Virus record (IMG/VR): IMGVR_UViG_3300025646_000029 | Location: 1 to 64,000 of that record | Length of the DNA stretch: 64,000 nucleotides | Source: a virus | Reading direction: 5' to 3' (one strand) | Shown: piece after piece, positions 5,950-35,298 of the stretch | How the letters are laid out: each line of letters begins with the position of its first letter | How positions within the stretch are numbered: position 1 is the stretch's first letter | Made by a program: the position numbers and the translations under genes | The notes under the pieces: generated by a model | What the model saw: only the letters and a program-made list of their open reading frames with translations | Told to the model about the DNA's origin: nothing | Database searches by the model: none

Positions 5950-6491
5950 GAGGGATTAAGTTTACGGATAAAATAATTGTAATTGATGTTGAATCCACAT
6001 GCGATGAAAACAAAGAGGGATTTATAAGTGAAATAATTGAGATAGGAATGACAGACTCAAACGGAAAAGAAATTCCTTCTATTTTTGTAAAACCAAAATA
6101 TTCTATAGTTACGCCATTTTGTACCAGATTAACAACTTTGACTCCTGAAGAAATTGAAGCAAAAGGTCAAGAGCCAGAAATTGCATATAAAAATCTCGAA
6201 TCTATATTTTCAAAATATACTAGGTGGGCATCTTATGGATATTACGACAAAAAAATGTTTGAAAAAATGAGTAGTCTATACGGGCTAGATATAAGGCTGC
6301 CACCGATACATATAAATGTTAGATTACTTTTTGCTCAAGAAATATTAAATAGTAATGATCCTCAAAAAGCACCAAGAAATCCCAAGGACGCACTAATTAT
6401 GCTGGGTAAAGAATTTCAAGGGGTAAATCACAGAGGGGAAGATGACGCTATAAACATAGCAAATCTTTATAATTTGTTAATTCAATTCTAG
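5946..6491 (+). CDS. DnaQ-like 3'-5' exonuclease (DEDDh family)
   Basis: Exo I motif VIDVEST and exo III motif HRGEDDAINIANLY (H-x4-D). 181 aa. Confidence 0.65.
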   Translation: MRGIKFTDKIIVIDVESTCDENKEGFISEIIEIGMTDSNGKEIPSIFVKPKYSIVTPFCTRLTTLTPEEIEAKGQEPEIAYKNLESIFSKYTRWASYGYYDKKMFEKMSSLYGLDIRLPPIHINVRLLFAQEILNSNDPQKAPRNPKDALIMLGKEFQGVNHRGEDDAINIANLYNLLIQF

Positions 6492-6504
6492 GAGTTATGG
6501 GTAA

Positions 6505-6936
6505 ATGAGAGCGATTAAGTTTCGGGCATGGAATAAAAGAGAGAAAGGATGGGAGCAAGAACATTCCTGTTATGGGATTGGGCTAGACGGAACAATTATT
6601 CCTGCGACGCCTTGTGTAACTCCCATTCGTCCTTTTAATAAGGACAGCGTAATTATCCAGCAGTATACTGGACTTAAAGACAAGAAAGGTCGAGAGATTT
6701 ATGAGGGCGATTTAATTATATCAGATCATTGGGCTTCGCAAGAACCATTAGTAGTTAGCTGGGATAAAGACGCCTGTAAATTTTACGCTTCACTTTCAAC
6801 TGGTGGAGAATACATTGATATGGACGAGGCTAGTAAACTGGTGGTCGGTAATATTTTTGAAGGAGTTGATAAATTAGTGATGAAATCACATACGGCGAAA
6901 TCTGCTGGTACGGTCAGGGTTTTTGGGGGTAAATAA
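6505..6936 (+). CDS. YopX-like phage protein, paralog 5 with a C-terminal extension
   Basis: MRAIKFRAW, IQQYTGLKDKKGREIYEGDL and VVGNIFEGVDK, followed by 20 extra residues. RBS aggag upstream. Confidence 0.55.
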   Translation: MRAIKFRAWNKREKGWEQEHSCYGIGLDGTIIPATPCVTPIRPFNKDSVIIQQYTGLKDKKGREIYEGDLIISDHWASQEPLVVSWDKDACKFYASLSTGGEYIDMDEASKLVVGNIFEGVDKLVMKSHTAKSAGTVRVFGGK

Positions 6937-8107: not shown

Positions 8108-8317
8108 ATGAGTAAATTACAGGATCTTCTTTTTAGGGCGAGTATCTATGGCGCTGAAGTTAAATACGACAATGGTACTTTTATCATTGTATGCCAAAAT
8201 GGTGCATTTTTAACCAGTAAAGACCTGTATACTCTACTTGAAGAAAGCGGCGTCAAAGTTGATACAATATATGCTAGAGATAATAGCTTGATTGTAAATA
8301 TTTCAATGAAAGATTGA
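8108..8317 (+). CDS. hypothetical protein
   Basis: 69-aa ORF. Confidence 0.3.
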   Translation: MSKLQDLLFRASIYGAEVKYDNGTFIIVCQNGAFLTSKDLYTLLEESGVKVDTIYARDNSLIVNISMKD

Positions 8318-8320
8318 TAA

Positions 8321-8650
8321 ATGAAAAAAATTGAAAATATCATACAAGCTTTTCGGGTTCTTAGTGCTTTAAAAGTAAAAGAAGTGGTATTACCGCATCT
8401 TGAATACCGCGAACTAAAACACTTGGTAGATCGTCATTTTTTAAATAACATCTCACATAATTCTCAAGAAAAATTTGAGGAATCTACAACAGTGCTAATT
8501 TATGGAGTTCAGGTTAAATCAGAACGGTTCCCTAAATACGAAAAGATTGACTACATAACCCCAGATAAATTCGCTGTTCAGCTCAAAAAAATGACAGAAG
8601 TAAAGATTAAATCGCGACCTCATACGCCGCGAGACGAACTGGATGACTAA
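8321..8650 (+). CDS. hypothetical protein
   Basis: 109-aa ORF. Confidence 0.35.
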   Translation: MKKIENIIQAFRVLSALKVKEVVLPHLEYRELKHLVDRHFLNNISHNSQEKFEESTTVLIYGVQVKSERFPKYEKIDYITPDKFAVQLKKMTEVKIKSRPHTPRDELDD

Positions 8651-8773
8651 ATGGATGTTATAAATTAACAGCCGCCGCTACCCTGGCAGCAGCTGACATC
8701 AAGCAATACATGCACAACCAAAAAGGAGCACGAAATAAATAGATTTAGATATGACGATGTTGATTGGGGCTAC

Positions 8774-9148
8774 GTGCTGAGAGCGCTGATTGATGCAACC
8801 CAATCGCGAAGAATTAGGTGGCAAGTTTACAGTCGTATGCAGCGTCCAGACGCGACTTCGGTGATATACCGCGGAGCATACAAGGGCTTTAATATCGTAT
8901 TGTTTAAATTCGCTGTAGATATTCCCGACGAGTCTTTTGCGGGCGATCTTGAAGACGTGTGCATTCTTATTGTAGACGAAGATGGCAAAGAGCTGTTTCG
9001 GATCCCTGCGGACTCGCAGCGGTGGCAACTTCTTAAACTTGTCCAATATGAAGCCGCTAACATTAGCACATTTATAGAGGATTTGTCGAGGCGGACGGCG
9101 AGAAATCCATTCTGGCTGTGGTCATGGTTCCGTCCGGGTCGCCGGTGA
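8774..9148 (+). CDS. hypothetical protein within the GC-rich island
   Basis: 124-aa ORF in a markedly GC-richer segment. The start is uncertain (GTG/CTG context). Confidence 0.3.
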   Translation: MLRALIDATQSRRIRWQVYSRMQRPDATSVIYRGAYKGFNIVLFKFAVDIPDESFAGDLEDVCILIVDEDGKELFRIPADSQRWQLLKLVQYEAANISTFIEDLSRRTARNPFWLWSWFRPGRR

Positions 9149-13829: not shown

Positions 13830-14642
13830 ATGAGAAACAGCGTGCAACTCATTGGTTATTACGGAAGCGACGAAGTAATCGCTTGTAGCGCTTGGACTTC
13901 AACCAGCAGAGATCTTTCAGAAGAAAAATTAGCACGCGTAGGGGCTTTAATAAACATGCTTTGGAGCGAAGGGCACGAAACCCCTTTTGAAAAGGGCGAG
14001 GTTCATTTTCTTGTCAATACTGATATTGCTAGCCACATTCATCTACTCAAACATCGGATTAGCTCACTCAATGCTGAATCTGCACGCTACAAGGAATTAA
14101 AGGAAGACAAGTATTACATTCCGGAAGACTGGCCTGAATTTAAAGCTAACACAAATGCTTTGGAAATATGTCGCGACGGAGCAGTTATTGACTCAAACTG
14201 GATAGAACTATTAGAGAGATACACGGAAATTGGAAACAAGTTGTACCACGACTGTGTTGCACAACTTACGCCCGTTTTGGGTCGAAAGCGAGCAAAAGAG
14301 TCAGCAAGATTCTTTAAAACATATAACTCGCAGATTCAAGCTGATGTAAAATTTAACATGAGATCGTTCGCTAATTTTCTAAAATTAAGAAATTCAGAAA
14401 GCGCCCAGCTGGAGATCAGAGAAATCGCAAAAGAAATGGTGAAGCAAGTATCTGAAATACACGGCAATCCATTTAAGCATACCCTAGAAGCGTTCGAGAA
14501 GCGTTCTAGTCTAGAAAAAACAACGAGGTCTTTGATAAAAAAGATGGGGGACATGGATGGAGCCACGTATTGCATTGATAGTGTCTTAGAATCCCCAGAG
14601 ATCTTTGACCAGATAAAAGACAAGTGGTTTTCAAATCTTTGA
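13830..14642 (+). CDS. thyX: flavin-dependent thymidylate synthase ThyX
   Basis: ThyX signature KHRISSLNAESARY (RHRx7S..RY-type) plus FLKLRNSESAQLEIREIAKEM (the AQxEIR motif). Confidence 0.8.
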   Translation: MRNSVQLIGYYGSDEVIACSAWTSTSRDLSEEKLARVGALINMLWSEGHETPFEKGEVHFLVNTDIASHIHLLKHRISSLNAESARYKELKEDKYYIPEDWPEFKANTNALEICRDGAVIDSNWIELLERYTEIGNKLYHDCVAQLTPVLGRKRAKESARFFKTYNSQIQADVKFNMRSFANFLKLRNSESAQLEIREIAKEMVKQVSEIHGNPFKHTLEAFEKRSSLEKTTRSLIKKMGDMDGATYCIDSVLESPEIFDQIKDKWFSNL

Positions 14643-14672
14643 TTTTGGTTCATATTTTACACGGAGCGCGCC

Positions 14673-14891
14673 ATGAAAAAAGAAAACGTTTACATTTTGT
14701 ACAAGCCAACAAAAAGAATCGACGGAGTATGGGCCTATTCTTTTTTGGGGTGTTACTCTTCTAGGGACCTGGCGATACAAAGTTATCTTGATGCGACGTT
14801 TTCATTCGAAGACGACTCGGACCCGCCAAAGCCACTTATTGTAAAAACAATGAAAGACAGCCCAGCCTTAACCCCCAAAGAATTATGGTGA
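14673..14891 (+). CDS. hypothetical protein
   Basis: 72-aa ORF. Confidence 0.3.
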   Translation: MKKENVYILYKPTKRIDGVWAYSFLGCYSSRDLAIQSYLDATFSFEDDSDPPKPLIVKTMKDSPALTPKELW

Positions 14892-14901
14892 AAGATAAAA
14901 T

Positions 14902-15762
14902 ATGAAACCTACTACAAAGAGCGTAAGAGTAAAAGGTGTCAACGTATACTACAATGATTTCGATGATGGGTTGCCAGACGACCCAGTAATAGATGGACTA
15001 AAAAACGGGATGCTTTACGGTGAAAGCAATTTTAACTTTCTGAATTTATTCATGGAATACGAAGCGATTCCTAGAAAAAAATACATATTCGATGGAGGCG
15101 GTCACGTTGGCACGTTTTCAGTTCCATGTATAAGATATGGGCACAATGTAATTATTGTCGAAGGAGCCGAGGGCAACTTCGAGTGCATCAAACAAACTTT
15201 GGAAGAAATGGAAAAGAACGACTCTATAGACTACGAGGTGCATAATTCTATTTTGTCTGACAAAAAAAGAAATTGCGAATTCAGCTCTACCGATGGGCCG
15301 TTTGGAATGGTTGTGTACGATGAAGATGGCGCTTTGATTACATCCACAATAGACGAGCTATGCGATGGAAAAGAAATATCGGCAATAAAACTAGACTTAG
15401 AAGGCGGCGAAATAGAAGCTATTCTTGGCGCGAAAGAAACAATAAAAAAACATCAGCCGCCGATGCTTGTAGAATTCAACTCGCATTGTCTTGGACTTAA
15501 CAACAAAAGTCCGCAACAGCTCATCGAAACCGTGGAAAGTGTGGACTACTTAGTTTACACAGCAATAAACAACGCATTAGTAAAAATATCCAAAGAGGAT
15601 AAGTTTCCCTTTTGTGTTGTAGACTGTATATGTATGCCAAAAAACAAGAACTATTCTGCGCGAACACTTAGTCAAGACGCCATACAAGCAATAGCCGAGA
15701 ATGGTTTTCAAAGATCAAACGAAGATTGCAGGGTTTACTTTAGAAAAGAATTTGGTTTTTAG
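14902..15762 (+). CDS. FkbM-family methyltransferase-like protein
   Basis: FDGGGHVGTFSVPCIRYGHNVIIVEGAEGNFECIK matches the FkbM-type SAM-binding block (fDiGAN.G.y......g.v.afEP.p.nf). Confidence 0.5.
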   Translation: MKPTTKSVRVKGVNVYYNDFDDGLPDDPVIDGLKNGMLYGESNFNFLNLFMEYEAIPRKKYIFDGGGHVGTFSVPCIRYGHNVIIVEGAEGNFECIKQTLEEMEKNDSIDYEVHNSILSDKKRNCEFSSTDGPFGMVVYDEDGALITSTIDELCDGKEISAIKLDLEGGEIEAILGAKETIKKHQPPMLVEFNSHCLGLNNKSPQQLIETVESVDYLVYTAINNALVKISKEDKFPFCVVDCICMPKNKNYSARTLSQDAIQAIAENGFQRSNEDCRVYFRKEFGF

Positions 15763-16096
15763 TGAATTTATAGAATATTCGAGTGGATCCAATAAAAAGG
15801 AGAGGGTAATCATAAATAAAAGTCAGCCGCGAGTACACAATAAACATCATGGAACTGCTCCACCAGATGCGGTTTACATTGGCAGAGGATCGATATACGG
15901 CAACCCTTTTGTGATAGACAAGCATGGAGACCGTGATGAAGTGTGCGAGGCGTATGAATCCATGTTGTTTTCAAACCAAGAACTGTTGGCAAAAGTGCGA
16001 AAAAATTTAAGAGGCAAAGATTTAGTTTGTTTTTGTAGCCCTAAAAGATGTCATGGTGACACTTTATTGAGGGTTGCTAATGAAACCGAGGCTTAA
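15701..16096 (+). CDS. DUF4326-like protein (GNPF / C-x-C-x-P-x2-CHGD)
   Basis: VYIGRGSIYGNPF ... KDLVCFCSPKRCHGDTLL. The conserved part begins near 15812. A strong RBS aaggagagg at 15797-15805 precedes in-frame ATC/ATA codons, so the true start may be non-AUG and downstream of the track start. Confidence 0.45.
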   Translation: MVFKDQTKIAGFTLEKNLVFSEFIEYSSGSNKKERVIINKSQPRVHNKHHGTAPPDAVYIGRGSIYGNPFVIDKHGDRDEVCEAYESMLFSNQELLAKVRKNLRGKDLVCFCSPKRCHGDTLLRVANETEA

Positions 16097-17219
16097 AATG
16101 TTACCAAAATTTGAAAAACTTTACAAAATGGACTCCAAACGCAAGATACGCGAATGGCTCATACAACTTGGTTCTGACGCCGGTGGCCAATATTATGAGC
16201 AAACACACGGCGTAACAGGCGGGGCAATGCAGACCACTAGAACATATGTTCTGACAGGCAAAAACAAGGGGAGGTCAAACGAAACAACACCCGGCGAACA
16301 AAGAGACCTTGAAGCCGAAAGTCTTTGGGTTAAAAAACAACAGAGAGGTGGTTATCAAACAGAAATACCAGAGTCCACCCCAAACATGCCAATGCTGGCG
16401 AAAAAGTACGACGAAAACAAACACAATATACAGTATCCAGCCTTTGCCCAACCCAAGCTAGATGGAATTAGATGTGTAGTCGAAGTTGATGAGAACGGTG
16501 ATGCAAGGTTTTTTTCGAGAACGAACAAAGAGTTCAGGACGCTTGAGCATATTGAAAAATATATCAAATCTAACACAAAAATTCGCTCCATAACACTCGA
16601 TGGTGAACTTTATAATCATGACCTAAAAGATGACTTTCAATCGATCGTGTCTGCTGTAAAACGAGACGAAGCGTGTGATTTTACGAAAAACATACAGCTT
16701 CATGTTTACGATATTTTCTCCGACGAAGATTACCAAAGCAGATTGCAAAAAATACAAAACACCTTGTCAAAATCGGGAGATGACAGTTGTATCAAGCCTG
16801 TCGAGACAATTGAGGTCGAAGACGAAGAAGGGTTCCTGGCTCTGTACCAGTCTTTTATTGAAAATGGCTACGAAGGAGCAATGATAAGAAACAAGACTGG
16901 TGGATACGAAAAAAACAAAAGAAGCAGCAATCTTCAGAAATTCAAGTCGTTTGAAGATGACGAATTCAAAATAACTGGCGCATACGAAAACAAAGGAAAA
17001 ATGGTTGGCCAATGCACTTTCGAGTGCGTTACCAAAAACGGCGACAGCTTTGGAGTAAAACCAAAAGGCGACGAACAAAAGCGACAAAAGTACTGGCAGG
17101 ATTTTCAAGACGGAAAACTAACTGGTAAAATGTTGACTGTCAGGTATTTTGGTTATACAATTGGAGAAAATCCAGTTCCTAGATTTCCAGTCGGTATCTC
17201 TATTAGGGATTACGAATAA
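16074..17219 (+). CDS. ATP-dependent DNA ligase
   Basis: Motif I AQPKLDGIRCVV (KxDG), motif III TLDGELY, motif IV EGAMIRNK and motif V LQKFK. Confidence 0.85.
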   Translation: MLMKPRLKMLPKFEKLYKMDSKRKIREWLIQLGSDAGGQYYEQTHGVTGGAMQTTRTYVLTGKNKGRSNETTPGEQRDLEAESLWVKKQQRGGYQTEIPESTPNMPMLAKKYDENKHNIQYPAFAQPKLDGIRCVVEVDENGDARFFSRTNKEFRTLEHIEKYIKSNTKIRSITLDGELYNHDLKDDFQSIVSAVKRDEACDFTKNIQLHVYDIFSDEDYQSRLQKIQNTLSKSGDDSCIKPVETIEVEDEEGFLALYQSFIENGYEGAMIRNKTGGYEKNKRSSNLQKFKSFEDDEFKITGAYENKGKMVGQCTFECVTKNGDSFGVKPKGDEQKRQKYWQDFQDGKLTGKMLTVRYFGYTIGENPVPRFPVGISIRDYE

Positions 17220-17222
17220 TTC

Positions 17223-17654
17223 ATGAAAAAACCTTTTGTGAAATCAAGCAGTTGTGTAATGTACCACATAGACCCAAACAAAAAAGTAAGGGTCTATTTG
17301 AATTACCCTAAGTCTTGTTATAGTGTAAAACAAAACGGCTTGGTTGTTTGTCATGCCTCAACGGTTATTTTGAAAGATTTTCAAACAATAGTAAGCAAGC
17401 CGGGTCAAAACAAAGTGCGAGAAGAAAAAAGAAAGAACGTGCACAGTTATGTTGAAGGGCAGGTTATTTCTGAACAGGAGGCCTTCAGAAAAAATAAAGC
17501 TGATATGGAGTGGCGTTACATGCACTATAATCCGTACACAACCGACTACTGGACAGATTCTGAAACGGGTAAATTTGTTTACTCTGGACAGCTTGCTTTA
17601 CTCGACAATGATTGTCGCGTTTTGGTTTCTAATAATTTTTGTTTGCGAGATTGA
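17223..17654 (+). CDS. hypothetical protein
   Basis: 143-aa ORF. Confidence 0.4.
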   Translation: MKKPFVKSSSCVMYHIDPNKKVRVYLNYPKSCYSVKQNGLVVCHASTVILKDFQTIVSKPGQNKVREEKRKNVHSYVEGQVISEQEAFRKNKADMEWRYMHYNPYTTDYWTDSETGKFVYSGQLALLDNDCRVLVSNNFCLRD

Positions 17655-17685
17655 CAGAATTGGTTTTTAGAAAGAAGTATGCAAA

Positions 17686-18855
17686 ATGAACTTAAACGAT
17701 TTTGGTGAAAAATTATTGTATGAAAGTCCGTTTTATGGCCACGTTTGTATTGGCGTTCCCAAAAGTTTTTCTACTGACATAGAAACCGCATGCGCTAGAC
17801 TTGACGGATTAAACTACTCGTTGCATTTCAATAAAGATTATTTTGACTCACTAAACGACAAACAAAAAATTGGTTTAATAGAACACGAAATATTGCACAT
17901 AGCTAATATGCATTTGCTGTATATTAGAAATTATAAAGACCGAGAAATATACAACATAGCATGCGATATGTCTATAAACCAATACATAAAACCAGAGAAC
18001 CTTTTTCCAAGGGCATTTTTACCCGACAGTATAGATGATTGCAAAATGCCGTATTGGCAAGGAGTAGATTATTACTACAACCGTCTTTGCGAATCAAAAA
18101 GTGAAGCTCTTGCACAATTCAAAGATTACATGAAAAACGGCGGGGCTGTTTCGTGCAGTCATAATTATTGGGAAGAATCTCAGGAAGGCCTTGACGAAAA
18201 TATAATCGAATTAATAAAAATTGATACGGCACAAAAATTAAAAGAAGCATCTGACGCAGCAGAATCAAAAGTCCCAGGATGCACACCTGGAGACATAAGA
18301 AGTATTATTGACTCAATATTAAAGAAGGTCCCACAAGTACTAAATTGGAAAGCTTTAGTCAACCAATTTAATTCTTTTTCTGACAAGTCTAAGGTTAATT
18401 TTTCAAGAAACAAATTAAACAAAAGATTTCCGGGTTTTGAGGCACCGTATCTTAGACTGAAAAGATCTCTACTTGTCGGAATAGACGTTTCCGGAAGTAT
18501 GACGCGTCCGTTTTTAAAACAAATTTATCAACAAATAAACCACATAAGCAATACTGGAGTTGAAGTTACAATTTGCGAATGGGACGCTGGGATAAAATCA
18601 ACTTATGACTACAAAAAAATAAAAAATAAAACCTCCATTGCTTACACTGGTGGCGGAGGAACAGACCCAACAGAGGCTATAGATTATTTCAAAAAAAGCG
18701 CTAATCTAAATGCAGCTGTGTTTTTTACAGATGGATTCATAAGTTGTAATTGGGACAAAAAATTACACAAACCAATTTTGTGGATCATTCCAGAAAACGG
18801 AAACGACAAGTTTAGTTGTCCGGGTAAAAAAGTAAAGGTGAATTTTAACATTTAA
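17686..18855 (+). CDS. putative metallopeptidase (HExxH) and von Willebrand factor A domain protein
   Basis: N-terminal HEILHIANMH zincin motif. C-terminal vWA MIDAS motif LVGIDVSGSMTR. This architecture is the usual partner of MoxR ATPases (DUF2201-like). Confidence 0.65.
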   Translation: MNLNDFGEKLLYESPFYGHVCIGVPKSFSTDIETACARLDGLNYSLHFNKDYFDSLNDKQKIGLIEHEILHIANMHLLYIRNYKDREIYNIACDMSINQYIKPENLFPRAFLPDSIDDCKMPYWQGVDYYYNRLCESKSEALAQFKDYMKNGGAVSCSHNYWEESQEGLDENIIELIKIDTAQKLKEASDAAESKVPGCTPGDIRSIIDSILKKVPQVLNWKALVNQFNSFSDKSKVNFSRNKLNKRFPGFEAPYLRLKRSLLVGIDVSGSMTRPFLKQIYQQINHISNTGVEVTICEWDAGIKSTYDYKKIKNKTSIAYTGGGGTDPTEAIDYFKKSANLNAAVFFTDGFISCNWDKKLHKPILWIIPENGNDKFSCPGKKVKVNFNI

Positions 18856-18880
18856 GTTTGTTTTTTTAAGGTTTAATAAA

Positions 18881-20044
18881 ATGTCAGAACAACAAAGCTC
18901 AAGCACGATTAAAAACATTCTATACCATATCATTTCCAACAACCAGTCGTTGGCCGAGCAAGGCAAAAAGAAAAACGCCTTGCTGATAGAAGGCCCAGCT
19001 GGACTAGGCAAAACATCAGTTGTCCAGCAAGTTGCAGAGTCAGTTGGTTTTAACTTTGTCAAAGTTAATTTATCAAACGTAGAACAAGCCGGTGACTTGT
19101 GCGGTTTTCCTATCCGAGAGTTCGAGTACACAGATTCGGACCTGAGGCCGCACTGGATAAACGAAGTAGACGCGGCTTCTCCTGGAGCTCTAGACGGCCT
19201 CAAAAGAACAGGCAAAACCAGAACTGGTTACTGTAAGCCGGACTGGGTTCCAGAAGAAGATGGAAATGGCACCATATTGTTACTAGACGACTTTACCCGT
19301 GGTGCCACTCATATCATGCAAGCTACAATGGAAGTTATCGACAGGGGCGAGTACTTGTCTTGGAAACTTCCCAAAAACTGTCACGTCATCTTGACTTCAA
19401 ATCCGTCAGACGGAGATTACAACGTTTCGGCTTTGGACGACGCTCAGTCGTCAAGATACATCAAAGTAGAAATGGGGTTCAATTTAGACGAATGGGCAAG
19501 ATGGGCGGAGGGTTACGGTTTGGATTCTAGATGTATAAACTTTATTCTTCTTAATCCAGAAATGGTAACCCAAAAAACCAACCCCCGACTCATAACTGAC
19601 TTCTTTAATTCTATCTCTTCTCTTAAAGATTTTTCTGCACCCGAGTCACTTTCTTTGATCAGGAGCATAGGCGCTGGCAGTGTAGGACGCGAGTTCTCTA
19701 CCACCTTTTGCCTGTTTATCCAAAACAGACTTGACAAAATACCGTCTCCAGGCGAAATTTATTCGAGCGCCCCTGAAACTTCTGTTCAGAAAATTTCTGA
19801 TATATGTGGCAGTTCGCGGTCAGTAGAATTCAGGCAAGACATAGCTGGTTTGATGGGAAGAAGACTTGTTAACTTCGCCGCAAACGTTTTGTGCAAAACT
19901 AGGCACTCAAGAGAAAAAGAGGCGGAGGTAATAGCGGCTTTGATAAACAATAATTGTCTTGGAAAAGACGTGAGTGGATACGTCAAAAAAGAATTAAATG
20001 GTTTTTATCAGTTCAAAACCCTTGTTTCCAAAATAGAAAATTGA
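18881..20044 (+). CDS. MoxR-family AAA+ ATPase
   Basis: Walker A LLIEGPAGLGKTSV and Walker B/sensor ILLLDDFTRGATHIMQATMEVIDRGEY. Confidence 0.75.
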   Translation: MSEQQSSSTIKNILYHIISNNQSLAEQGKKKNALLIEGPAGLGKTSVVQQVAESVGFNFVKVNLSNVEQAGDLCGFPIREFEYTDSDLRPHWINEVDAASPGALDGLKRTGKTRTGYCKPDWVPEEDGNGTILLLDDFTRGATHIMQATMEVIDRGEYLSWKLPKNCHVILTSNPSDGDYNVSALDDAQSSRYIKVEMGFNLDEWARWAEGYGLDSRCINFILLNPEMVTQKTNPRLITDFFNSISSLKDFSAPESLSLIRSIGAGSVGREFSTTFCLFIQNRLDKIPSPGEIYSSAPETSVQKISDICGSSRSVEFRQDIAGLMGRRLVNFAANVLCKTRHSREKEAEVIAALINNNCLGKDVSGYVKKELNGFYQFKTLVSKIEN

Positions 20045-20052
20045 GGTTAAAA

Positions 20053-22095
20053 ATGAAACTAGGAATAGTTATAAACAGCGAAATAGCTTTCAATGATAGG
20101 GTTTCTGTACCCAAAAAAATCAATGATTATCTATATTTACAACCTATAAACCCCAAAGTTGTTTCTGTTCTTTCAGATTTTGGCATCAATATATCACAGG
20201 ACTTAACCCGTAAGTCTGCAAGTAACCCCAAGTTTTACTATACGCATATAATTGGCAGTTCAGTAAATTTTCTAAATGCATTGCTTGTTGTTTCAAAAGA
20301 AAACAAACCAACAATACTTGCAAGCGACCCAAGCCTTTTAGAGATTATAAAATATATATGTTGCGAAATTCTTTTTATTAAACGTTATAATGATATTATT
20401 AATATTATTTTCGAAGACGACTTGGATCAATTAGAAAATATAGACAAAGATTTTACTAAACTGCTTTCAAAACTTAAATACAAAGAAACAATACTAGAGT
20501 CGAGTATAGATTCAGTTTGCTTTTATCCTAAAACCAAATTTGACAGAAATTATTTCAAAGAAACATACCCTTCTGTCAATAAAAAAATGAAACCCAAAGA
20601 CGCTGATATATCCGTGGTCGACGAAGATTTAACAGCAAGAGACTTGATGAAAGAACTTAACAATATTAAGGTCAAAGTTTTTTCTTTAAGTGGCATCGAG
20701 TCTTTTAATTTTTGTGAAATTCTTGCAAATCATTTGTCGAGCTTTGCTACAATAAACACAAACACTGCTACTTTTGATTTTCACTCAGGCGCTTCAGTTG
20801 AAATAATATTGCAATTCAAAAATTACATAGATGATTTGATAACGAGTTTTATCAATGGAGAAGAATCAGAAATCGAGTTAGAATTATTTGTCAAAATTGG
20901 ACAATTGGAAAACGGATCCACCCGAAGCCCGTTTTCGCAGTGGGGTAAACTAGAGTGCCCGTTAACAAAAACGTCAGGGAACAACCTTTCGTTTAAAGGG
21001 GCTAATGATGAGGACGTATATGTAGATAATTTGTTTAATTTTGATTGCCCTATAAAAGATACAAAAGAAGATTTTATTCACAATAAATTTGTTGAAATAT
21101 TAACGCAGGCGCCCCAATTTTCTCGTCTCCAACAAGTCGCTTTTGGGAAAAACAAATCTTTTCAAACGGCAATTTGTCCAGACAGCGTGGAAAGGATTCT
21201 TCGCCCAAAACATTGGGCAGAGAAAGCGCAATCTGAAACAAGTGAAAGTGAAAACTACAATGAATGGCACAACGGAATTTCTTTGTATATAAACAAAAAT
21301 GACAGAAAAGCTGTAGACTGGATACTAGACTCAAATAACTTGGTTTTAAACACTGACATTATAAACTCGATCGTTCCAGAAAATGCAAAAGATTTAAAAA
21401 AAGAAAACATAAAAAATATAATGTCAAAAATAATGTCGTCTGATATCAAGGCTGTTCTTTACGGAGTAAACGAACTGTTGTCATTCGACGCACGTAAATA
21501 TTGGCCTGTGCAAATGTTTATTTTAAGAACAAATAAATTTCCAATAAGAGACCTGTGGGCCAAATCTAAAAAACTAGAAGCTTTTTGGAATACTTATCAC
21601 GTCCAGATATCACGGCATAATTCGAGTAATGTTTCTATTTTAATCGGGACAACCCATTATTTTGATTCAAAAAATATTGAAAACATATCAGCCGTCATGC
21701 AAATTCTAGGAAAGGCAGCCAGTAAGAGTTTCCCCAGCAATCAGGTGCACGAAAAAATGTCAACTATACTTGACATAGTGTGTTCTGCGGATATACTTGG
21801 TGATCTCGTTAAAGATCAAGTACAAAATAGATTAAACGGTTTGTTTCAAGGTAAAATAAAAATAACCAACGGTACTTTTGATCTGTCATTGTTTAATGAC
21901 GAAGAAAATGATTTTGGTATGTTTTTTACTTTTGCATCGGGTAAAACCGAAATTTACCAATATTCGTCTTCTGAAGAAAAAGATCAGGTTATAAAAAATT
22001 ATTTATCGTCTTCAACCAGCTGTACCCAAAAAGAAGAACCGGCCCAAAGAGCAGAAATTACAAAACCTAGTTTAGTAGATTTATTTGCAGTTTAA
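20053..22095 (+). CDS. large hypothetical protein (~680 aa) downstream of the MoxR/vWA pair
   Basis: ATG at 20053 with RBS gagg. The track ORF starts at 19954 inside the MoxR gene. Asn/Lys/Ser-rich with no recognisable motif. Confidence 0.5.
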   Translation: MKLGIVINSEIAFNDRVSVPKKINDYLYLQPINPKVVSVLSDFGINISQDLTRKSASNPKFYYTHIIGSSVNFLNALLVVSKENKPTILASDPSLLEIIKYICCEILFIKRYNDIINIIFEDDLDQLENIDKDFTKLLSKLKYKETILESSIDSVCFYPKTKFDRNYFKETYPSVNKKMKPKDADISVVDEDLTARDLMKELNNIKVKVFSLSGIESFNFCEILANHLSSFATINTNTATFDFHSGASVEIILQFKNYIDDLITSFINGEESEIELELFVKIGQLENGSTRSPFSQWGKLECPLTKTSGNNLSFKGANDEDVYVDNLFNFDCPIKDTKEDFIHNKFVEILTQAPQFSRLQQVAFGKNKSFQTAICPDSVERILRPKHWAEKAQSETSESENYNEWHNGISLYINKNDRKAVDWILDSNNLVLNTDIINSIVPENAKDLKKENIKNIMSKIMSSDIKAVLYGVNELLSFDARKYWPVQMFILRTNKFPIRDLWAKSKKLEAFWNTYHVQISRHNSSNVSILIGTTHYFDSKNIENISAVMQILGKAASKSFPSNQVHEKMSTILDIVCSADILGDLVKDQVQNRLNGLFQGKIKITNGTFDLSLFNDEENDFGMFFTFASGKTEIYQYSSSEEKDQVIKNYLSSSTSCTQKEEPAQRAEITKPSLVDLFAV

Positions 22096-22160
22096 AATAA
22101 AGGAAATAAAACAAGAGAAGTTTAGTTTGGTCGCTTAACTTTATCTATGATAGGATTAAT

Positions 22161-22829
22161 ATGAAAAAAACCAGACCAAACGGCTTTGTACCAGTTTCAA
22201 GCAAAACTGAAAACCAAAAAAAATACATAATGTCGATACAAAAAAATGACGTTGTGATATGCTCAGGACCAAGTGGAACTGGAAAAAGCTTGATAGCCCT
22301 TGGAATTGCTTTTCAAAAATACTATAAAAATGAAATAGGAACAATATTCGTAACTAGGCCGATGGTTGCAACTTCAGAAAGAGAGTTTCCTTATATAAAA
22401 GGAACTTTGTTTGAAAAATTAGAACCCTACTACGCCCCAATAATCGAAGTTATAGGGCAGTTACACGGTGGTGGCACTAACGGTAAAAAGATAGCAAAAG
22501 AACTAATAGAAACCGGAATCGTTGTTCTGCAGCCAATAGAGCTTATGAGAGGGTTCACTTACAAAAACTGCTGTGTTTTAGTAACAGAGTCACAAAACAT
22601 GAGTGTGCAACAAGCAGTTATGGCTATCACTAGAATAGGCGAAGGCTGCAAGATGATATTCGAAGGGGACACTGACCAAAAAGACGTGCGATTTGAAAGC
22701 GGCCTTTCCTTTTTAATAAGAAAGCTAGGCGGAAACGATGACGTTTGCTCTGTTGTGCAGCTTGGCAATGAAGATATTCAAAGGCACCCTTTGATAGGAA
22801 GAATTTTAGAACTAATAAAAAAGGAATGA
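22161..22829 (+). CDS. phoH: PhoH-like ATPase
   Basis: Walker A VICSGPSGTGKSLIA and the PhoH block VLVTESQNMSVQQAVMAITRIGEGCKMIFEGDTDQKD. Confidence 0.8.
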   Translation: MKKTRPNGFVPVSSKTENQKKYIMSIQKNDVVICSGPSGTGKSLIALGIAFQKYYKNEIGTIFVTRPMVATSEREFPYIKGTLFEKLEPYYAPIIEVIGQLHGGGTNGKKIAKELIETGIVVLQPIELMRGFTYKNCCVLVTESQNMSVQQAVMAITRIGEGCKMIFEGDTDQKDVRFESGLSFLIRKLGGNDDVCSVVQLGNEDIQRHPLIGRILELIKKE

Positions 22830-23233
22830 CGATGATAGTTGCAGTTTCTATAGACAGAGATTTCGATGATTATGCAAAATTTTCTGATACCCTTCAGAAT
22901 ATAGAATCATCAAATACAGCAGTAGAATTTTGTTCGATTGGAAAACCAGAACTATTGCTGCGGTACAAAGAGGAGTTTGGTTCTAATGTTAATGTTTTTG
23001 AGATATTTTGGAAAGTAAACTCGGAAACATTAAAGAAAGACATCAAACAAGGAAAGTTTGGGCCGTATGACTCAGGCGCGCCATTGGCGGCTGCAAGAAG
23101 AGTCGCTGGATATTGTACTCATTTTATAAATTTTGGAAATGGAGATTACAATATTTCAAGAGAATGCCTAAACCTTGAAAGACCAGAGATCACGTTTAGC
23201 TCTCAAGAAACGAGTAAGAGATACAAGTTCTAG
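22826..23233 (+). CDS. hypothetical protein
   Basis: 135-aa ORF, coupled. Confidence 0.4.
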   Translation: MTMIVAVSIDRDFDDYAKFSDTLQNIESSNTAVEFCSIGKPELLLRYKEEFGSNVNVFEIFWKVNSETLKKDIKQGKFGPYDSGAPLAAARRVAGYCTHFINFGNGDYNISRECLNLERPEITFSSQETSKRYKF

Positions 23234-23241
23234 GAAAAAAA

Positions 23242-23562
23242 ATGCTAGTAACAAAAGAATACCTGTGCGAAAATTGTGGTGAAATTGAAATACTTCAAAG
23301 CCACAAACAAATCTCTAAAAAATGCCCAACGTGCAAGGCAAAAATAGAAAGGATCATCGGTGCTCCGATAGTATCGAAATTGAATGAACCTAGAACCATT
23401 GGGGCTCAACTTGATTTAAACAACAAGCGAAACCCTCTTTCTAGGGAAAAGGCGATGGGTGTAGGAAAGCAAAAAAAGCTGGAAAAAGAATCTCGCATGA
23501 GAAAAATATCAAAACTAAGCCCGTCTGGAATGAAAAGGTTCTTGAACGACGGCGTACTTTGA
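23242..23562 (+). CDS. FmdB-like Zn-ribbon protein
   Basis: YLCENCGEIEIL...KCPTCKA. Confidence 0.35.
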   Translation: MLVTKEYLCENCGEIEILQSHKQISKKCPTCKAKIERIIGAPIVSKLNEPRTIGAQLDLNNKRNPLSREKAMGVGKQKKLEKESRMRKISKLSPSGMKRFLNDGVL

Positions 23563-23592
23563 TCTAATCTATGTGATAGAATTGAGGTCAAA

Positions 23593-23814
23593 ATGAGTAT
23601 TGATTTTAAAGACGCCAAAAAGATTTTTGTTTTGAGACACAAAGACACAGAAAAATATCTAAATTACAAAAACGCACTTGTAAAAAATTTTTGTAATGCG
23701 CTAATATTTACAACTGAATGGAAGGCTAGGCAAAGAAGGTCTTCCCTAAAAAAAATAGACTCTTCTTGTCTTGAAATAGTAGAATATTTTTTGTCGCAAA
23801 ATTGCATAAAATAG
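23593..23814 (+). CDS. hypothetical protein
   Basis: 73-aa ORF. Confidence 0.25.
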   Translation: MSIDFKDAKKIFVLRHKDTEKYLNYKNALVKNFCNALIFTTEWKARQRRSSLKKIDSSCLEIVEYFLSQNCIK

Positions 23815-23830
23815 AAAGGTATGAATAAGA

Positions 23831-24058
23831 ATGTTGCTAAGTTGTAATAATTGTTCAGAAGAAATGGTAGACGCAGAAGATAACGCAAGCGAAGAATCGA
23901 CAGATGTTGTAAAAATAAACATCACATGTGTTTGCGGTTATGTAAACCAGCATTCAAGTTTAGGTTACCCTAGACTAGCTGGAGTCGACAAGTACTACTT
24001 TGAATTTACAGATGAATTTTCCATAGAGTGCAGAGAAAGAAAATCGTTTAATGTTTAA
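23831..24058 (+). CDS. hypothetical acidic Cys-containing protein
   Basis: 75-aa ORF with CNNC...CVCGY. Confidence 0.3.
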   Translation: MLLSCNNCSEEMVDAEDNASEESTDVVKINITCVCGYVNQHSSLGYPRLAGVDKYYFEFTDEFSIECRERKSFNV

Positions 24059-24389
24059 ACAAATTTATATTTCTAATATATCAGAATTACCAGTTGCTTT
24101 AGCAGAAGTAAAATATACAAAAGATGGAAAGTCTGCAAGTGGTAAAATAGAGAACTACCTTGTTGCCGCCAAGAAAACAACAGGAGAACACCCTACTTAC
24201 TTTATAAGGCTTTTTGCTAATTTACCAGCCCGAAAAGAAGGCAATGCATTCAATAGCCATGTTATGAATCCCACTTTTGTGGCAGTAAACGAAAAAACAT
24301 TTTCGCAATACATCGAGTATCTTTATAGCGGAAAAGAAGGTGCGTGGCTCAATGTAAGAAATGACATGAGGGATCAAAATATCATATGA
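24051..24389 (+). CDS. hypothetical protein
   Basis: 112-aa ORF. Confidence 0.4.
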   Translation: MFKQIYISNISELPVALAEVKYTKDGKSASGKIENYLVAAKKTTGEHPTYFIRLFANLPARKEGNAFNSHVMNPTFVAVNEKTFSQYIEYLYSGKEGAWLNVRNDMRDQNII

Positions 24390-24712
24390 GTAAAACAACA
24401 AAAATAACAAAAAAGAAAAGAACAACAGCCAACCCCGCCGATATAATGTATATCAAGTCAAAGCAAAAGTCGCAAACTGCAGAGGAAATTTCTGAGGCGA
24501 TAGGGCTTTCTTTGACGACAGTAAAAAAACACTATTCTGGTATAACACAAAAAGAAACCGTCGAAAAAAACATTGGTCGCTCCAAAATAAAACTACCAAA
24601 CGGGGGACGAGTTTTTCAAATGACGGACGACTTAGACGCCCCAGTAAAAAGAAGCCCCCTAAAAGATCAAGCCGATCTAGACGCGCAAAACGGTATATAC
24701 AGGTTGAAGTAA
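24386..24712 (+). CDS. putative HTH DNA-binding protein
   Basis: Basic N-terminus, then TAEEISEAIGLSLTTVKKH, a helix-turn-helix-like segment. Confidence 0.35.
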   Translation: MSKTTKITKKKRTTANPADIMYIKSKQKSQTAEEISEAIGLSLTTVKKHYSGITQKETVEKNIGRSKIKLPNGGRVFQMTDDLDAPVKRSPLKDQADLDAQNGIYRLK

Positions 24713-25077
24713 TGATAAACGGGTCAAAATCAAACCGGGACGCAATAATTCACCTCGCTATGCAAAGGAGGTTTGAAAAAAACGGAGTAAAACTCCCGCC
24801 TAAATACTGGAATCTTCCAGAGTACAAACAAGAATACGCCCATCAAATCAGGGGGTATTACAAACTAACAAAAGCGTACTCTGAAACGGTTATATTAAAA
24901 GTGTTTCAACGCGAGCGCTGGTGTTTTAGCTTGCACAACGAATCTCTTGTTGGAAAAATTTCTCAAGAAAATAACATAGAAAAAACAAAACAACAGCAAA
25001 CTCAGCCGTTGGCAAAACCAAAAATTCAAAACACTTCTGATCTTGCCAATGAAGACATTCCTTTGTTCAGAAAATAA
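24712..25077 (+). CDS. hypothetical protein
   Basis: 121-aa ORF. Confidence 0.4.
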   Translation: MINGSKSNRDAIIHLAMQRRFEKNGVKLPPKYWNLPEYKQEYAHQIRGYYKLTKAYSETVILKVFQRERWCFSLHNESLVGKISQENNIEKTKQQQTQPLAKPKIQNTSDLANEDIPLFRK

Positions 25078-25085
25078 GGTGAAAT

Positions 25086-26180
25086 ATGGCAAAAGCCAAG
25101 AAAAAAGAAAAGTCTCTTATAGGCCAAGACTTTTTCTGTTCCGCGCAAGACATTCTCGAAGAAGAAAAAAGATGCGCTAGCACTATCCCGGTAAGCCCGG
25201 CCCTTGACGAAAAGCTTCACGGCGGACTTAGGTCTGGCACCGTAGTCTTGCTCAGAACACTTCCCAAAGTTGGTAAAACAACTCTTTGCATGCAAGTAGT
25301 TAAAAATGCCCTTGATCAAAATAGATGGGTTATATTCGTTGATGCAGAACGCAGGCTTGTCGGGGAGAAATACTTTGATATCAAAGGCCTTGATGTAAAA
25401 CACCCAAAACTACTTTTTGTTCGAGCGCGAGTTGGGGGCAAATTAGTTTCAGGTGACGAAATATATTCGAATATATACCATATGATGCAACTCCCGAAGT
25501 ACAGAGGGGCTTTGTACGTCGTTGATTCTTTGTCGAAAATAATACCACGATCTACCCTTGAAGACGACACTGTTAGAGCTGATAGATTTGATACTACGCC
25601 AAAATTAAATGCAGATTTTTGCAAAAAAGTAATGCCGCTTGCAAGAATCTCTGAAAGTGTAGTTATAGGGATACAGCACTTTATTACAGACAGAAATGCA
25701 ATGGGCGATCCTTTAAAACCAGACGGCGGTATTAAACTTGAGTTCGAATGCGATGTTGTTATTGAATCAAGAAAAAAACCAAAGATGTGGGATGGCAACG
25801 CCATAAACCTTGCAGAAGGCGAAGAACTTGAAGGTCAAAAAGTATTCTTTAATATTCCTGTCAATAAAATGGGGGCGCCATACATAAGCAAAATGTGTCC
25901 AGTCGAGTGCTACATAAAGTTCGGCGAGGGTATTTGGTGGGCTAGAGAAGCGCTAGACGTATTGACTGGAATGGGAGTTATATCCAAATCTGGTTCGTAT
26001 TATACATTTTTAACAGAAACAGGCGAGCAGAAGGTACAAGGTTCGGTAAAAGCTGTTGATTTTATAGAATCAAACAAAGAGTTTTATGAAAACTTACTAA
26101 AAAATGAAATGACCGAAAGATACGGCGCTGTCTACTCGTTTGAACAAGTCGACGACGAAGAAGAAGAGGAGGAGGAATGA
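25086..26180 (+). CDS. RecA-family recombinase-like ATPase (RecA/UvsX/Sak4-like)
   Basis: GGLRSGTVVLLRTLPKVGKTTLCMQVV resembles RecA [24 protein letters not shown], but the Walker A is deviant and lacks the first Gly. VIFVDAE Walker B-like block. Poly-Glu C-terminal tail, as in RecA and UvsX. Confidence 0.5.
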   Translation: MAKAKKKEKSLIGQDFFCSAQDILEEEKRCASTIPVSPALDEKLHGGLRSGTVVLLRTLPKVGKTTLCMQVVKNALDQNRWVIFVDAERRLVGEKYFDIKGLDVKHPKLLFVRARVGGKLVSGDEIYSNIYHMMQLPKYRGALYVVDSLSKIIPRSTLEDDTVRADRFDTTPKLNADFCKKVMPLARISESVVIGIQHFITDRNAMGDPLKPDGGIKLEFECDVVIESRKKPKMWDGNAINLAEGEELEGQKVFFNIPVNKMGAPYISKMCPVECYIKFGEGIWWAREALDVLTGMGVISKSGSYYTFLTETGEQKVQGSVKAVDFIESNKEFYENLLKNEMTERYGAVYSFEQVDDEEEEEEE

Positions 26181-26722: not shown

Positions 26723-27148
26723 ATGGAGCCAGATATCAAAGCCATTGGAATAGACGGAAAAGAATATATAATAAATTTTACAAAGCACTGTATAATAGAA
26801 GAGCAAAAAAGCTCATTGCACGTAAAAGCTCGCGTTCTTCTAAAAAAAATGTTTCCGTCTTCTGATGTATACGAAGAGGTAATACTAAAGGGATGCGTTG
26901 GGGCCGGTGGCAAAGAATTAAAAGCTGACTTTTTAATACCTCAATTAAAAGTGCTTGTCGAAACACACGGAAAACAGCACTATGAGTACACGAGTCATTT
27001 TCACAAAACAACTTCTGATTTTAAAAAATCATTAAAAAATGATGAAATAAAACAGGACTGGGCGGAGTTGAATGGTATTATTTATATATCCCTCCCGTAC
27101 AATAAAATAAAAGATTGGAGATCGATTATCAATGACAGACTTCCGTAG
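26723..27148 (+). CDS. hypothetical protein
   Basis: 141-aa ORF. Confidence 0.4.
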   Translation: MEPDIKAIGIDGKEYIINFTKHCIIEEQKSSLHVKARVLLKKMFPSSDVYEEVILKGCVGAGGKELKADFLIPQLKVLVETHGKQHYEYTSHFHKTTSDFKKSLKNDEIKQDWAELNGIIYISLPYNKIKDWRSIINDRLP

Positions 27149-34915: not shown

Positions 34916-35298
34916 CTGACGACCACTTTAGTACACACTTATCAAAACAACTTGAGTATCACAGAAATTGTGTTGGTTTAGGACTTGTGTGCAAAGAGTT
35001 GTTTTTTCAACTTATAGAGTATGTAATAAATTTTTTCTTAGATTCTCAGGAAGAATGCTGGTTAGACAGCGAGACAACTTCTATATCCAAGATGAAAAAA
35101 ACTGGCTATGGATATAAAATAGGAGAAGAGGAGTATGTATTACAAGTCGAATGCACTTGTTGCGACTACTCAAGATTCTACGAGATAGAAGATCTACAGG
35201 AAGCCGCCAAGTGCTTTATAACAAGATGCTTAGAATGTTCTTTTAAAAGACACGTAAAGGTAGTTCCCTGTGATAAAAAACGAAGACGTAGTTCTTGA
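34912..35298 (+). CDS. hypothetical Cys-rich protein inside the dnaE split
   Basis: 128 aa with CTCCDY...C..C. ATGA-coupled to the dnaE N-fragment. Confidence 0.4.
   Translation: MTDDHFSTHLSKQLEYHRNCVGLGLVCKELFFQLIEYVINFFLDSQEECWLDSETTSISKMKKTGYGYKIGEEEYVLQVECTCCDYSRFYEIEDLQEAAKCFITRCLECSFKRHVKVVPCDKKRRRSS

Follow-up and report, generated by a model that had tools for sequence, protein, structure and literature searches.

Why would a virus carry a MoxR-like ATPase beside a protein that joins a peptidase-like domain to a von Willebrand factor A (vWA) domain, and does the long protein encoded directly behind them belong to the same system? The question is raised by nucleotides 17686 to 22095 of IMG/VR virus record IMGVR_UViG_3300025646_000029, the first 64,000 nucleotides of which were analysed here as one stretch (the window). 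Three open reading frames (ORFs) follow each other there on the plus strand, namely ORF1 (the peptidase-vWA protein), ORF2 (the ATPase) and ORF3. ORF1 and ORF2 very probably form a true and widespread two-gene module, that of the N4 gp25/gp24 family, which is already known as a family and whose function is uncharacterised. The window represents a large metagenomic sub-clade of this module with inverted gene order, a DD version of the Walker B motif and an insert after DLxGxP in the ATPase, as well as an extra gene of unknown function directly 3' of the ATPase. Taken alone, the window contributes a variant of something already known and no new kind of system; new are the features of the sub-clade and the family of ORF3 with its C-terminal tail, a modest addition of unproven function.

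The linkage of the two genes was surveyed from both sides. Of 80 IMG/VR loci selected solely through their ATPase, 79 have a gene of the ORF1 type (DUF2201) directly upstream of it on the same strand, and the upstream sequence of the sole exception is too short to hold such a gene. This answers a question that the sequence-only reading, an earlier interpretation of the locus made without database searches, had raised about the conservation of the neighbourhood. When bacterial and archaeal loci were picked by the DUF2201 protein alone, the ATPase was adjacent on the same strand in 74 of 80, with four more showing it across a gap. Homologues of ORF1 were found by tblastn in 330 cultured phage records, including N4-like phages, Bacillus phage G, S-TIM5-type cyanophages, Thermus phage phiFa and many Vibrio phages, and the ATPase usually adjoins them, with pairs present in S-TIM54, Pastis and phiFa. 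A metagenomic search recovered more than 2578 proteins homologous to ORF2, the best 120 of which are 41-53% identical to it (100% within its own cluster), about 383-400 aa long and often encoded on contigs of 100-170 kb. Being common to N4 and the N4-like phages compared, and found in those 330 records, in more than 2500 metagenomic ATPase clusters and in many bacterial chromosomes, the pair ranks amongst the more widely distributed phage modules of unknown function. By blastn, the DNA of ORF1 to ORF3 had no match in 50,697 phage records, so that the window has no close cultured relative.

The sequence-only reading had treated the function of the pair as unclear in a phage, as though the pair were new. 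Both of its members have in fact been listed before, and the architecture has been published for jumbo phages (PMC2784036; PMC6992544; PMC7824862). In N4-like phages, gp24 is a conserved 'putative ATPase, AAA superfamily' and gp25 a conserved protein described as 'vWFA super-family' or as 'putative metallopeptidase domain, pfam13203' (PMC2784036; PMC6992544), and a MoxR AAA+ protein with a metallopeptidase-vWA partner has been described as a 'chaperone-cochaperone pair' in group 2.2 jumbo phages (Iyer et al., 2021; PMC7824862).

Both parts of ORF1 were recognised by profiles. The Pfam model DUF2201_N (PF13203, 'putative metallopeptidase') matched aa 35-228 with 49.3 bits (cut-off 23.2) and DUF2201 (PF09967, 'VWA-like') matched aa 263-373 with 37.2 bits (cut-off 26.4), both above their gathering scores and in N-to-C order, which places the protein in the family. 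The zincin and vWA motifs that had been read from the letters at the outset are present and were borne out by these searches. In an alignment of 119 unique homologues of phage, metagenomic and bacterial origin, H67, E68, H71 and H76 of the zinc-binding motif are invariant, as they also are in a 25-sequence alignment with cultured phages, and two further positions, the candidate metal ligands D94 and N98, are conserved in 99% and 100% of the 119 respectively. The metal ion-dependent adhesion site (MIDAS) of the vWA part is equally well kept, D267, S269, S271 and D349 being present in 100% and T326 in 98% of these homologues. Searched against the PDB, the ORF1 family profile matched the I domains of integrin alpha-X and alpha-M (E = 3e-5, aa 254-364) and the vWA domain of alpha2-delta, and matched more weakly the minigluzincin MJ1213 (E = 0.004, aa 35-77) and BepA. 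Judged from these residues, both halves look functional, one as a zinc endopeptidase and the other as a metal-dependent adhesion site.

The PHROG match of ORF1, phrog_1314 (E = 5.6e-57), carries the label 'HNH endonuclease', which does not suit the domains of a zincin-vWA fusion. The same label is common on ORF1 homologues in RefSeq phage records (for example NC_023719.1 gp576, NC_019514.1 and NC_029017.1) and appears to be a propagated misannotation of such fusions.

ORF2 passed the cut-off of the Pfam model AAA_5 (29.2 bits, cut-off 22) and stayed below that of AAA_3, the model for MoxR proper (23.8 bits, cut-off 27); amongst 33 diverse members of its family, AAA_3 (16) and AAA_5 (13) were the most frequent Pfam matches. 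The PHROG 'ATPase' family phrog_1297 matched it with an E-value of 1.1e-35. Against the PDB, the family profile found only the AAA domains of midasin (E = 6e-22), the match being confined to the stretch from Walker A to 'nLS..gDLxG', and NCBIfam returned only P-loop-level matches far under the cut-offs. Because AAA_3 was missed, midasin was the only relative in the PDB and NCBIfam matches did not go beyond the P-loop, ORF2 is, on profile evidence, a divergent member of the MoxR/AAA_5 group and not a typical MoxR. The MoxR-class assignment of the sequence-only reading therefore held at the level of the group, with the motifs GPAGLGKT, LLLDDF and RGEY all in place, and needs correction in the Walker B motif, which has DD in place of the canonical DE of MoxR proteins.

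The DD is a property of the family, since D136, D137 and R140 of Walker B are invariant in 120 of 120 members. W92 and P120 in the DLxGxP and insert region are also invariant, and so are N174, a candidate sensor 1 by alignment, and R192 and R236, candidates for the arginine finger or sensor 2. The nLS..gDLxG signature, which midasin and AAA_5 have as well, and the long spacing between Walker A and Walker B are the sequence signs that would place ORF2 in the helix-2-insert clade, and the region 19091-19276 would correspond to the helix-2 insert region. The clade-specific insert presumably sits where MoxR-type rings usually contact their substrates, and the DD, if it slows hydrolysis, would in our estimation suit a switch-like remodeller. 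A clamp-loader identity for ORF2 was considered on account of matches to phrog_168 and to RFC models of NCBIfam, and was rejected; these matches cover the P-loop region only, and the DLxG signature, the midasin matches and the near-universal linkage to a vWA gene speak against it.

The same three genes appear in the public gene calls on the source contig (ENA assembly ERZ27275027, 67,170 bp), identical or near-identical copies of which occur in several further metagenomes. Gaps of 25 nt and 8 nt separate ORF1 from ORF2 and ORF2 from ORF3. ORF3 had been described as overlapping the end of the ATPase gene, but an overlap exists only for a mechanically extended ORF that begins at a TTG at 19954. 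The ATG at 20053, 8 nt past the ORF2 stop, is the start chosen by the gene caller; it has a GAGG Shine-Dalgarno sequence 7 nt upstream and is kept in the sister contig L096. A scan for promoters and terminators gave site counts close to those of shuffled sequence and was uninformative on operon structure. The coordinates are collected in Table 1.

Table 1. Genes and motifs of the locus, and the tape-measure ORF, in window coordinates.
Feature	Position	Strand	Description
ORF1	17686-18855	+	389 aa; zincin-like DUF2201_N and C-terminal DUF2201 vWA/MIDAS; N4 gp25 family
HEILHIANMH	17884-17913	+	ORF1 aa 67-76; HExxHxxxxH, putative zinc-binding/catalytic motif; H67, E68, H71, H76
DVSGSM	18484-18501	+	ORF1 aa 267-272; MIDAS DxSxS; D267, S269, S271
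GGGGTD	18649-18666	+	ORF1; MIDAS T326
FFTDG	18721-18735	+	ORF1; MIDAS D349
ORF2	18881-20044	+	387 aa; divergent MoxR/AAA_5-type AAA+ ATPase; distant relative of the N4 gp24 family
GPAGLGKT	18992-19015	+	ORF2 aa 38-45; Walker A; G41, G43, K44, T45 invariant
GDLCGFP and insert	19091-19276	+	Motif with clade-specific insert of ~25-30 aa before Walker B; from alignment to midasin domains and insert-less phage homologues
LLLDDFTR	19277-19300	+	ORF2 aa 133-140; Walker B variant; DD replaces DE
RGEY	ORF2 aa 155-158	+	Motif present
ORF3	20053-22095	+	680 aa; expanded member of the small, fast-evolving family ORF3fam
ORF3 motif 1	20521-20628	+	F..T.FDR.YF...YP.....AD....D; predicted beta-alpha-beta-beta unit
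ORF3 motif 2	21436-21513	+	S.D......L..(Y/F)(D/N)..KY.P.Q; from alignment; helical region
ORF3 C-terminal tail	22078-22092	+	DLFAV-COOH; family consensus: acidic, F, any residue, V/I/L
Tape-measure ORF	56734-63906	-	2390 aa; tape-measure PHROG matches

The junction between the DUF2201 and ATPase genes is often interrupted in relatives of the window. Gaps of about 0.8-1.1 kb were seen in five contigs (L017, L045, L051, L063 and L070), the insert of contig L013 (6248-6988) is a GIY-YIG/NUMOD1 homing-endonuclease-like gene, and contig L012 has interruptions around the junction at 6094-6912 and 8163-8972. In three others (L018, L067 and L092) the DUF2201 gene itself is apparently in two pieces. 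These cases suggest that mobile endonucleases or introns target the conserved module.

Compared with N4 gp24/gp25 and the orthologues in Schitoviridae, the window has the same two families with the same domain architectures, adjacent on one strand and placed amongst middle or replication genes. The order is reversed, however: it is peptidase-vWA then ATPase in the sub-clade of the window, and ATPase then peptidase-vWA in N4-like phages, cyanophages, phiFa and cells. The aligned DE-type ATPases (from the N4-like Erwinia phage Pastis, S-TIM54 and phiFa) are about 330-345 aa long without an insert after DLxGxP, whereas ORF2 has 387 aa, the invariant DD and the insert of about 25-30 aa, and is only 22-28% identical to the N4-type proteins. 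Genes annotated as MoxR-like ATPases in Vibrio phages of about 190 kb match ORF2 by tblastn at about 25% identity. The group 2.2 jumbo phages share the architecture of a MoxR protein with a metallopeptidase-vWA partner (PMC7824862). Cellular ATPase-DUF2201 pairs, found in JGI data as 'predicted metal-dependent peptidase', represent the same module in the ATPase-first order, with neighbours that vary (Hsp33, DUF3150, housekeeping genes); at least one of these loci, that of Moraxella, is itself an N4-like element.

Amongst characterised systems, a MoxR/AAA_5 ATPase adjoining or fused to a MIDAS-bearing vWA domain is also the arrangement of RavA-ViaA, CbbQ-CbbO, NorQ-NorD and midasin, which have been listed as MoxR-vWA pairs (PMC7159879), and of the tail-assembly pair of Acidianus two-tailed virus (ATV). 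Midasin is the closest sequence relative of ORF2 in the PDB, the likeness being restricted to the region from Walker A to DLxG. To our knowledge, no characterised MoxR-vWA system has a vWA partner that bears a zincin peptidase domain, as ORF1 does.

The vWA-MoxR ternary conflict systems (Kaur et al., eLife 2020; PMC7159879) likewise combine a MoxR-vWA core with a variable third component. In these systems of multicellular bacteria a metallopeptidase occasionally stands at the effector position; their defining traits are a third component of the VMAP or FtsH-like type and arrays of effectors to which the vWA protein is fused (PMC7159879). Neither such a component nor effector arrays were found at the locus with Pfam and PADLOC, in searches that included no VMAP-specific profile; the vWA part of ORF1 is fused to a peptidase domain only, and the module is phage-encoded within a replication block, unlike the ternary systems. 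PADLOC gave no match at all to ORF1 and ORF3, and its matches to ORF2 (IetA, DolB and BrxF) were limited to the Walker A region with E-values of at least 1.6e-4. The kinship with the ATPase-vWA operons of bacterial immunity that the sequence-only reading had drawn finds no more than this P-loop-level likeness.

ORF3 is a different matter, as it had no match in Pfam, PHROGs, NCBIfam or PADLOC, in the PDB by phmmer or in phages by tblastn. It had been taken for a low-complexity protein; its sequence entropy is normal, no 12-residue window falling below 2.2 bits and the global value (4.07) being that of PhoH. Because dN/dS between the window and L096 is 0.44 for ORF3 against 0.12 for ORF1, 0.13 for ORF2 and 0.06 for PhoH, and dN is 0.110 against about 0.017 for ORF1 and ORF2, ORF3 is a genuine coding gene whose rate of evolution is about six times that of its two neighbours. 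The GC content over ORF3 (20001-22000) is lower, at 0.326 against about 0.38, with values of about 0.36-0.40 in the neighbouring segments and a GC skew near zero over ORF3; the low GC fits the faster evolution of the gene or a different history.

The family of ORF3 (ORF3fam) is small. Amongst 5.8 billion proteins, only two clusters matched ORF3 (its own and that of a sister 80% identical), a profile search run exhaustively over 1.84 billion representatives yielded five remote relatives of 363-464 aa, and scans of the IMG/VR and JGI metagenomes for further members found only two loci each. In the closest lineage (ATPase identity of at least 50%) a member of the family follows the ATPase, and in every locus with flanking sequence it is located between the ATPase and PhoH genes. 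On an independent contig, the relative P0170 lies directly after the DUF2201-ATPase pair and before PhoH, and P0167 has an ATPase fragment on one side and PhoH on the other. Two tandem paralogues occupy this position in contigs L011, L012/L098 and L099. A profile hidden Markov model (HMM) built without ORF3 nevertheless matched ORF3 collinearly (aa 118-257, E = 1.6e-16; aa 408-603, E = 5e-11), and because of this alignment ORF3 is read as one enlarged copy that carries an N-terminal extension and about 150 aa of inserted sequence; an origin by fusion of two tandem paralogues, as the arrangement in L011 and L012 might have implied, is excluded by it.

Three motifs run through the family. F157, T161, F163, D164, R165, F168, P173, A184 and D190 of motif 1 are invariant in seven sequences; SKKL..F is a further collinear motif, and ORF3 shows all the features by which membership of the family was defined. 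AlphaFold2 (AF2) models of ORF3 reached a predicted local distance difference test (pLDDT) score of 28.8 with an alignment of two sequences and 38.6 with seven, too poor for a fold search; motif 1 was modelled as strand-helix-strand-strand at a pLDDT of about 52-60, and aa 445-516 is the sole region with values of 69-79. A C-terminal F-x-[VIL] is present in 13 of 14 members. Behind the ATPase of the larger sister clade (74 loci) stands a different family, famA (about 410-424 aa, no Pfam match), and the gene after famA has a weak PD-(D/E)XK match. The famA proteins end in D-[FIL]-[ED]-W-F, and the conserved tails of both families are acidic-aromatic and sit on a polar linker. The two families aligned in hhalign with P-values of 7e-4 and 1.2e-3 at a probability of 20-27%, mainly over the N-terminal beta-alpha-beta part of motif 1, and the ORF3fam and famA profiles gave only chance-level matches against the PDB. 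A BRCT domain was considered for motif 1 and discarded, PF00533 having matched 2 of 25 famA members (best E = 0.14) and no ORF3fam member, with no sequence match in the PDB.

DUF3150 was also tried as an analogue of ORF3 and dropped (hhalign P-values of 0.55-0.88). A DUF3150 gene lies 3' of the ATPase-DUF2201 pair in the Bacteroidota Chitinophaga and Tannerella (L114 7112-7951 and L104 7212-8081, respectively), and the Chitinophaga protein ends in ...SEFIL, resembling the ORF3fam tail, with no detectable relation to either ORF3fam or famA.

The surroundings of the pair bear on when it might act. The plus strand carries a replication and nucleotide-metabolism block that begins with the small and large subunits of ribonucleotide reductase (RNR), ThyX, an FkbM-type methyltransferase and a DUF4326 protein, continues with an ATP-dependent DNA ligase, an L5 gp82-like protein, ORF1, ORF2, ORF3, PhoH and a RecA/UvsX-like recombinase, and ends with a homing endonuclease, DnaB helicase, primase, a deoxynucleoside monophosphate (dNMP) kinase, an exonuclease and a split DnaE-type polymerase. 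Tail genes are found on the minus strand from about 47.6 kb onward, more than 25 kb from the pair. In the sister clade a primase gene lies upstream of the pair and the weak PD-(D/E)XK gene downstream, and in N4-like phages the pair is placed between the RNAPII genes and those for dCTP deaminase and replication. Hsp20 is encoded directly upstream of the pair in S-TIM54 (L001 2520-2954), and Hsp33 directly downstream in Thiobacillaceae (L116 6666-8012 and 26 related loci); these neighbours, seen in two unrelated settings, could reflect lineage synteny or hint at a role in protein quality control.

By analogy with RavA-ViaA, CbbQ-CbbO, NorQ-NorD and midasin, it can be proposed that ORF1 and ORF2 form an ATP-driven, MIDAS-tethered chaperone-protease acting in the replicative phase, a proposal for which we regard the case as evenly balanced. 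The ORF2 ATPase would form a ring, and the vWA domain of ORF1 would dock on the ring, on the client or on both, its MIDAS metal site binding an acidic residue. ATP-driven remodelling would then present the client to the tethered zinc protease, and the net result would be a two-polypeptide, FtsH-like, ATP-dependent metalloprotease. FtsH couples an ATPase ring to an HExxH zinc metalloprotease and so offers a functional analogy; it differs in belonging to another AAA+ clade and another peptidase family, of which ORF1 and ORF2 are not members, and in being a single membrane-anchored polypeptide that lacks a vWA domain. As the pair is placed amongst replication genes, expression together with them is suggested, and the target would probably be a host or phage protein of the replicative phase rather than the virion proteins. 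ORF3 is best taken as a candidate for the role of adaptor, regulator or client, though it may just as well be an unrelated protein of the replication module; with its polar linker, the acidic-aromatic tail could plausibly serve to dock it to the MIDAS site or to the ATPase. The sequence-only reading had linked ORF3 to the pair as a client or effector; the association gains some support, as genes of the ORF3 family always come after the ATPase in the phage lineage nearest to the window, and the client or effector part is one conceivable role. That ORF3 is functionally part of the system is in our judgement nearly, perhaps fully, an even matter. Distinctly doubtful is a three-component system in which the ORF3fam or famA protein, as an adaptor or decoy, would steer a slow-cycling DD ring and its protease to a replisome, nucleoid or defence protein of the host. 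In this scheme, which would operate during phage DNA replication, the flexible tail would plug into the MIDAS site or mimic an SSB-type docking tail (SSB, single-stranded DNA-binding protein). If true, this would be a phage-encoded, retargetable ATP-dependent protease.

Several points weigh against the chaperone-protease proposal or its extension to ORF3. The protease fold of ORF1, and the helix-2 insert and pre-sensor-1 hairpin of ORF2, are assignments made from sequence only, and the DD Walker B may mean slow ATP hydrolysis or none. The replication-gene position is weak evidence for timing or target, because early and middle genes of phages cluster anyway, and the S-TIM54 pair has a virion structural gene two genes further downstream. 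ORF3 could be a mere conserved neighbour; homology between ORF3fam and famA is weakly supported, and no ORF3-like gene stands beside N4-type, cyanophage or cellular pairs. N4 gp24 and gp25 are listed as being of unknown function (PMC2784036; PMC6992544), and virion assembly with peptidolytic processing has been proposed for the jumbo-phage pair (Iyer et al., 2021; PMC7824862). No functional study was found in the literature on DUF2201, PF13203, COG3864, N4 gp24/gp25 or the Schitoviridae metallopeptidase, and neither were knockout or transcript data on members of the pair.

The published alternative, that the pair is a morphogenesis chaperone with a maturation protease which assembles head or tail components and processes structural proteins, was proposed for jumbo-phage pairs of the same architecture on the analogy of the MoxR-vWA pair that serves tail assembly in ATV (PMC7824862), and an archaeal phage-tail assembly system of this kind was also listed by Kaur et al. 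(PMC7159879). The S-TIM54 pair, flanked by Hsp20 and close to a 1026-aa virion structural protein, would accord with it, and the 2390-aa tape-measure protein of the window phage might need chaperoning. Yet the pair lies amongst replication, nucleotide-metabolism or middle genes in the window (from a 67-kb source contig), in the 74 loci of the sister clade and in N4-like phages, and the tail genes of the window are on the opposite strand and distant. The pair is, moreover, common in cellular chromosomes away from any phage context, for instance beside Hsp33 and type IV pilus genes in Thiobacillaceae, which points to a more general protein-remodelling role. The genomic context therefore argues, if weakly, against virion assembly and for a role alongside replication genes, and we consider the morphogenesis explanation unlikely. 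An insertase or chelatase-like function in the manner of CobS-CobT, BchI-BchD, NorQ-NorD or CoxD-CoxE, loading a metal cofactor into, for example, the neighbouring RNR, seems very improbable. It is true that several characterised MoxR-vWA pairs serve metal-centre assembly (PMC7159879), that ORF2 weakly matches phrog_249 'porphyrin biosynthesis' (1.6e-6, P-loop region only) and that the RNR genes lie about 5 kb upstream. The invariant HExxH with its glutamate, however, points to peptide-bond hydrolysis and away from metal delivery, and of the three roles that the sequence-only reading had offered (the others being virion maturation and counter-defence) cofactor insertion agrees least with an invariant protease site. 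Nor does the occurrence of the pair in phages and cells track that of any one metalloenzyme.

The evidence on ORF3 can be read in two further ways. A host-takeover or counter-defence device that disables a defence, nucleoid or replisome protein of the host, with ORF3 as the adaptor or decoy in an arms race, would account for the six-fold higher dN and the dN/dS of 0.44 of ORF3, for its lower GC (0.326) and for a family that has been tandem-duplicated, expanded and possibly replaced between lineages; the gene position fits early or middle expression, and the acidic-aromatic tails presumably look like those with which SSB-type proteins dock to other proteins. Anti-defence genes that are known tend to be variable and accessory, though, and the ATPase and the peptidase-vWA protein are strongly conserved (dN/dS 0.12-0.13, 40-53% identity across more than 2500 proteins), with the pair listed amongst the genes common to N4-like phages. 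PADLOC shows no similarity to defence components, and the cellular homologues cannot act against host defence. A device of this sort is accordingly rated as rather improbable. It is also possible, and a good deal harder to dismiss, although we still incline against it, that ORF3 is an unrelated gene of the replication module, such as an SSB-like or replisome accessory protein with a docking tail, which adjoins the pair by chance. C-terminal tails of the acidic-aromatic kind typify replisome proteins, SSB included, no SSB was recognised amongst the scanned replication-module genes, ORF3fam and famA are absent beside the pairs of phiFa, cyanophages, N4-type phages and cells, and synteny at such short evolutionary distances can be plain inheritance. 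On the other hand, a tail-bearing gene stands directly 3' of the ATPase in both sub-clades (at 8 nt here, 0-100 nt elsewhere), a position kept though ORF3fam and famA have diverged almost beyond recognition, and fast evolution with tandem duplication would be unusual for an SSB.

Several minor observations concern other genes of the window. Pfam and PHROGs recognised no SSB amongst the replication-module genes scanned (13830-26180), and the SSB of the phage may be amongst its unannotated ORFs. An HNH/homing-endonuclease-like ORF (26723-27148, plus strand; phrog_9084, E = 5e-15) lies between the RecA/UvsX-like and DnaB genes. The DUF4326 gene (15701-16096, plus strand), upstream of the ligase gene, overlaps the methyltransferase gene by 62 nt, and in the Moraxella N4-like element with an ATPase-DUF2201 pair DUF4326 is fused to a fragment of a phage-type single-subunit RNA polymerase (L105 1807-3267). 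The polymerase is of the DnaE type (Pol III alpha-like) and is split into 33059-34915 and 36898-38502 on the plus strand, corresponding to the N- and C-terminal halves of phrog_405, with best cultured-phage matches about 31% identical; the halves are parted by about 2 kb of other genes (ORFs 34912-36898), including an exonuclease-subunit-like ORF (36062-36898, phrog_192). On the minus strand, two large ORFs near the tape-measure ORF (48252-51314 and 51326-55201) had no PHROG match, and the 2390 aa of the tape-measure ORF itself imply an unusually long tail.

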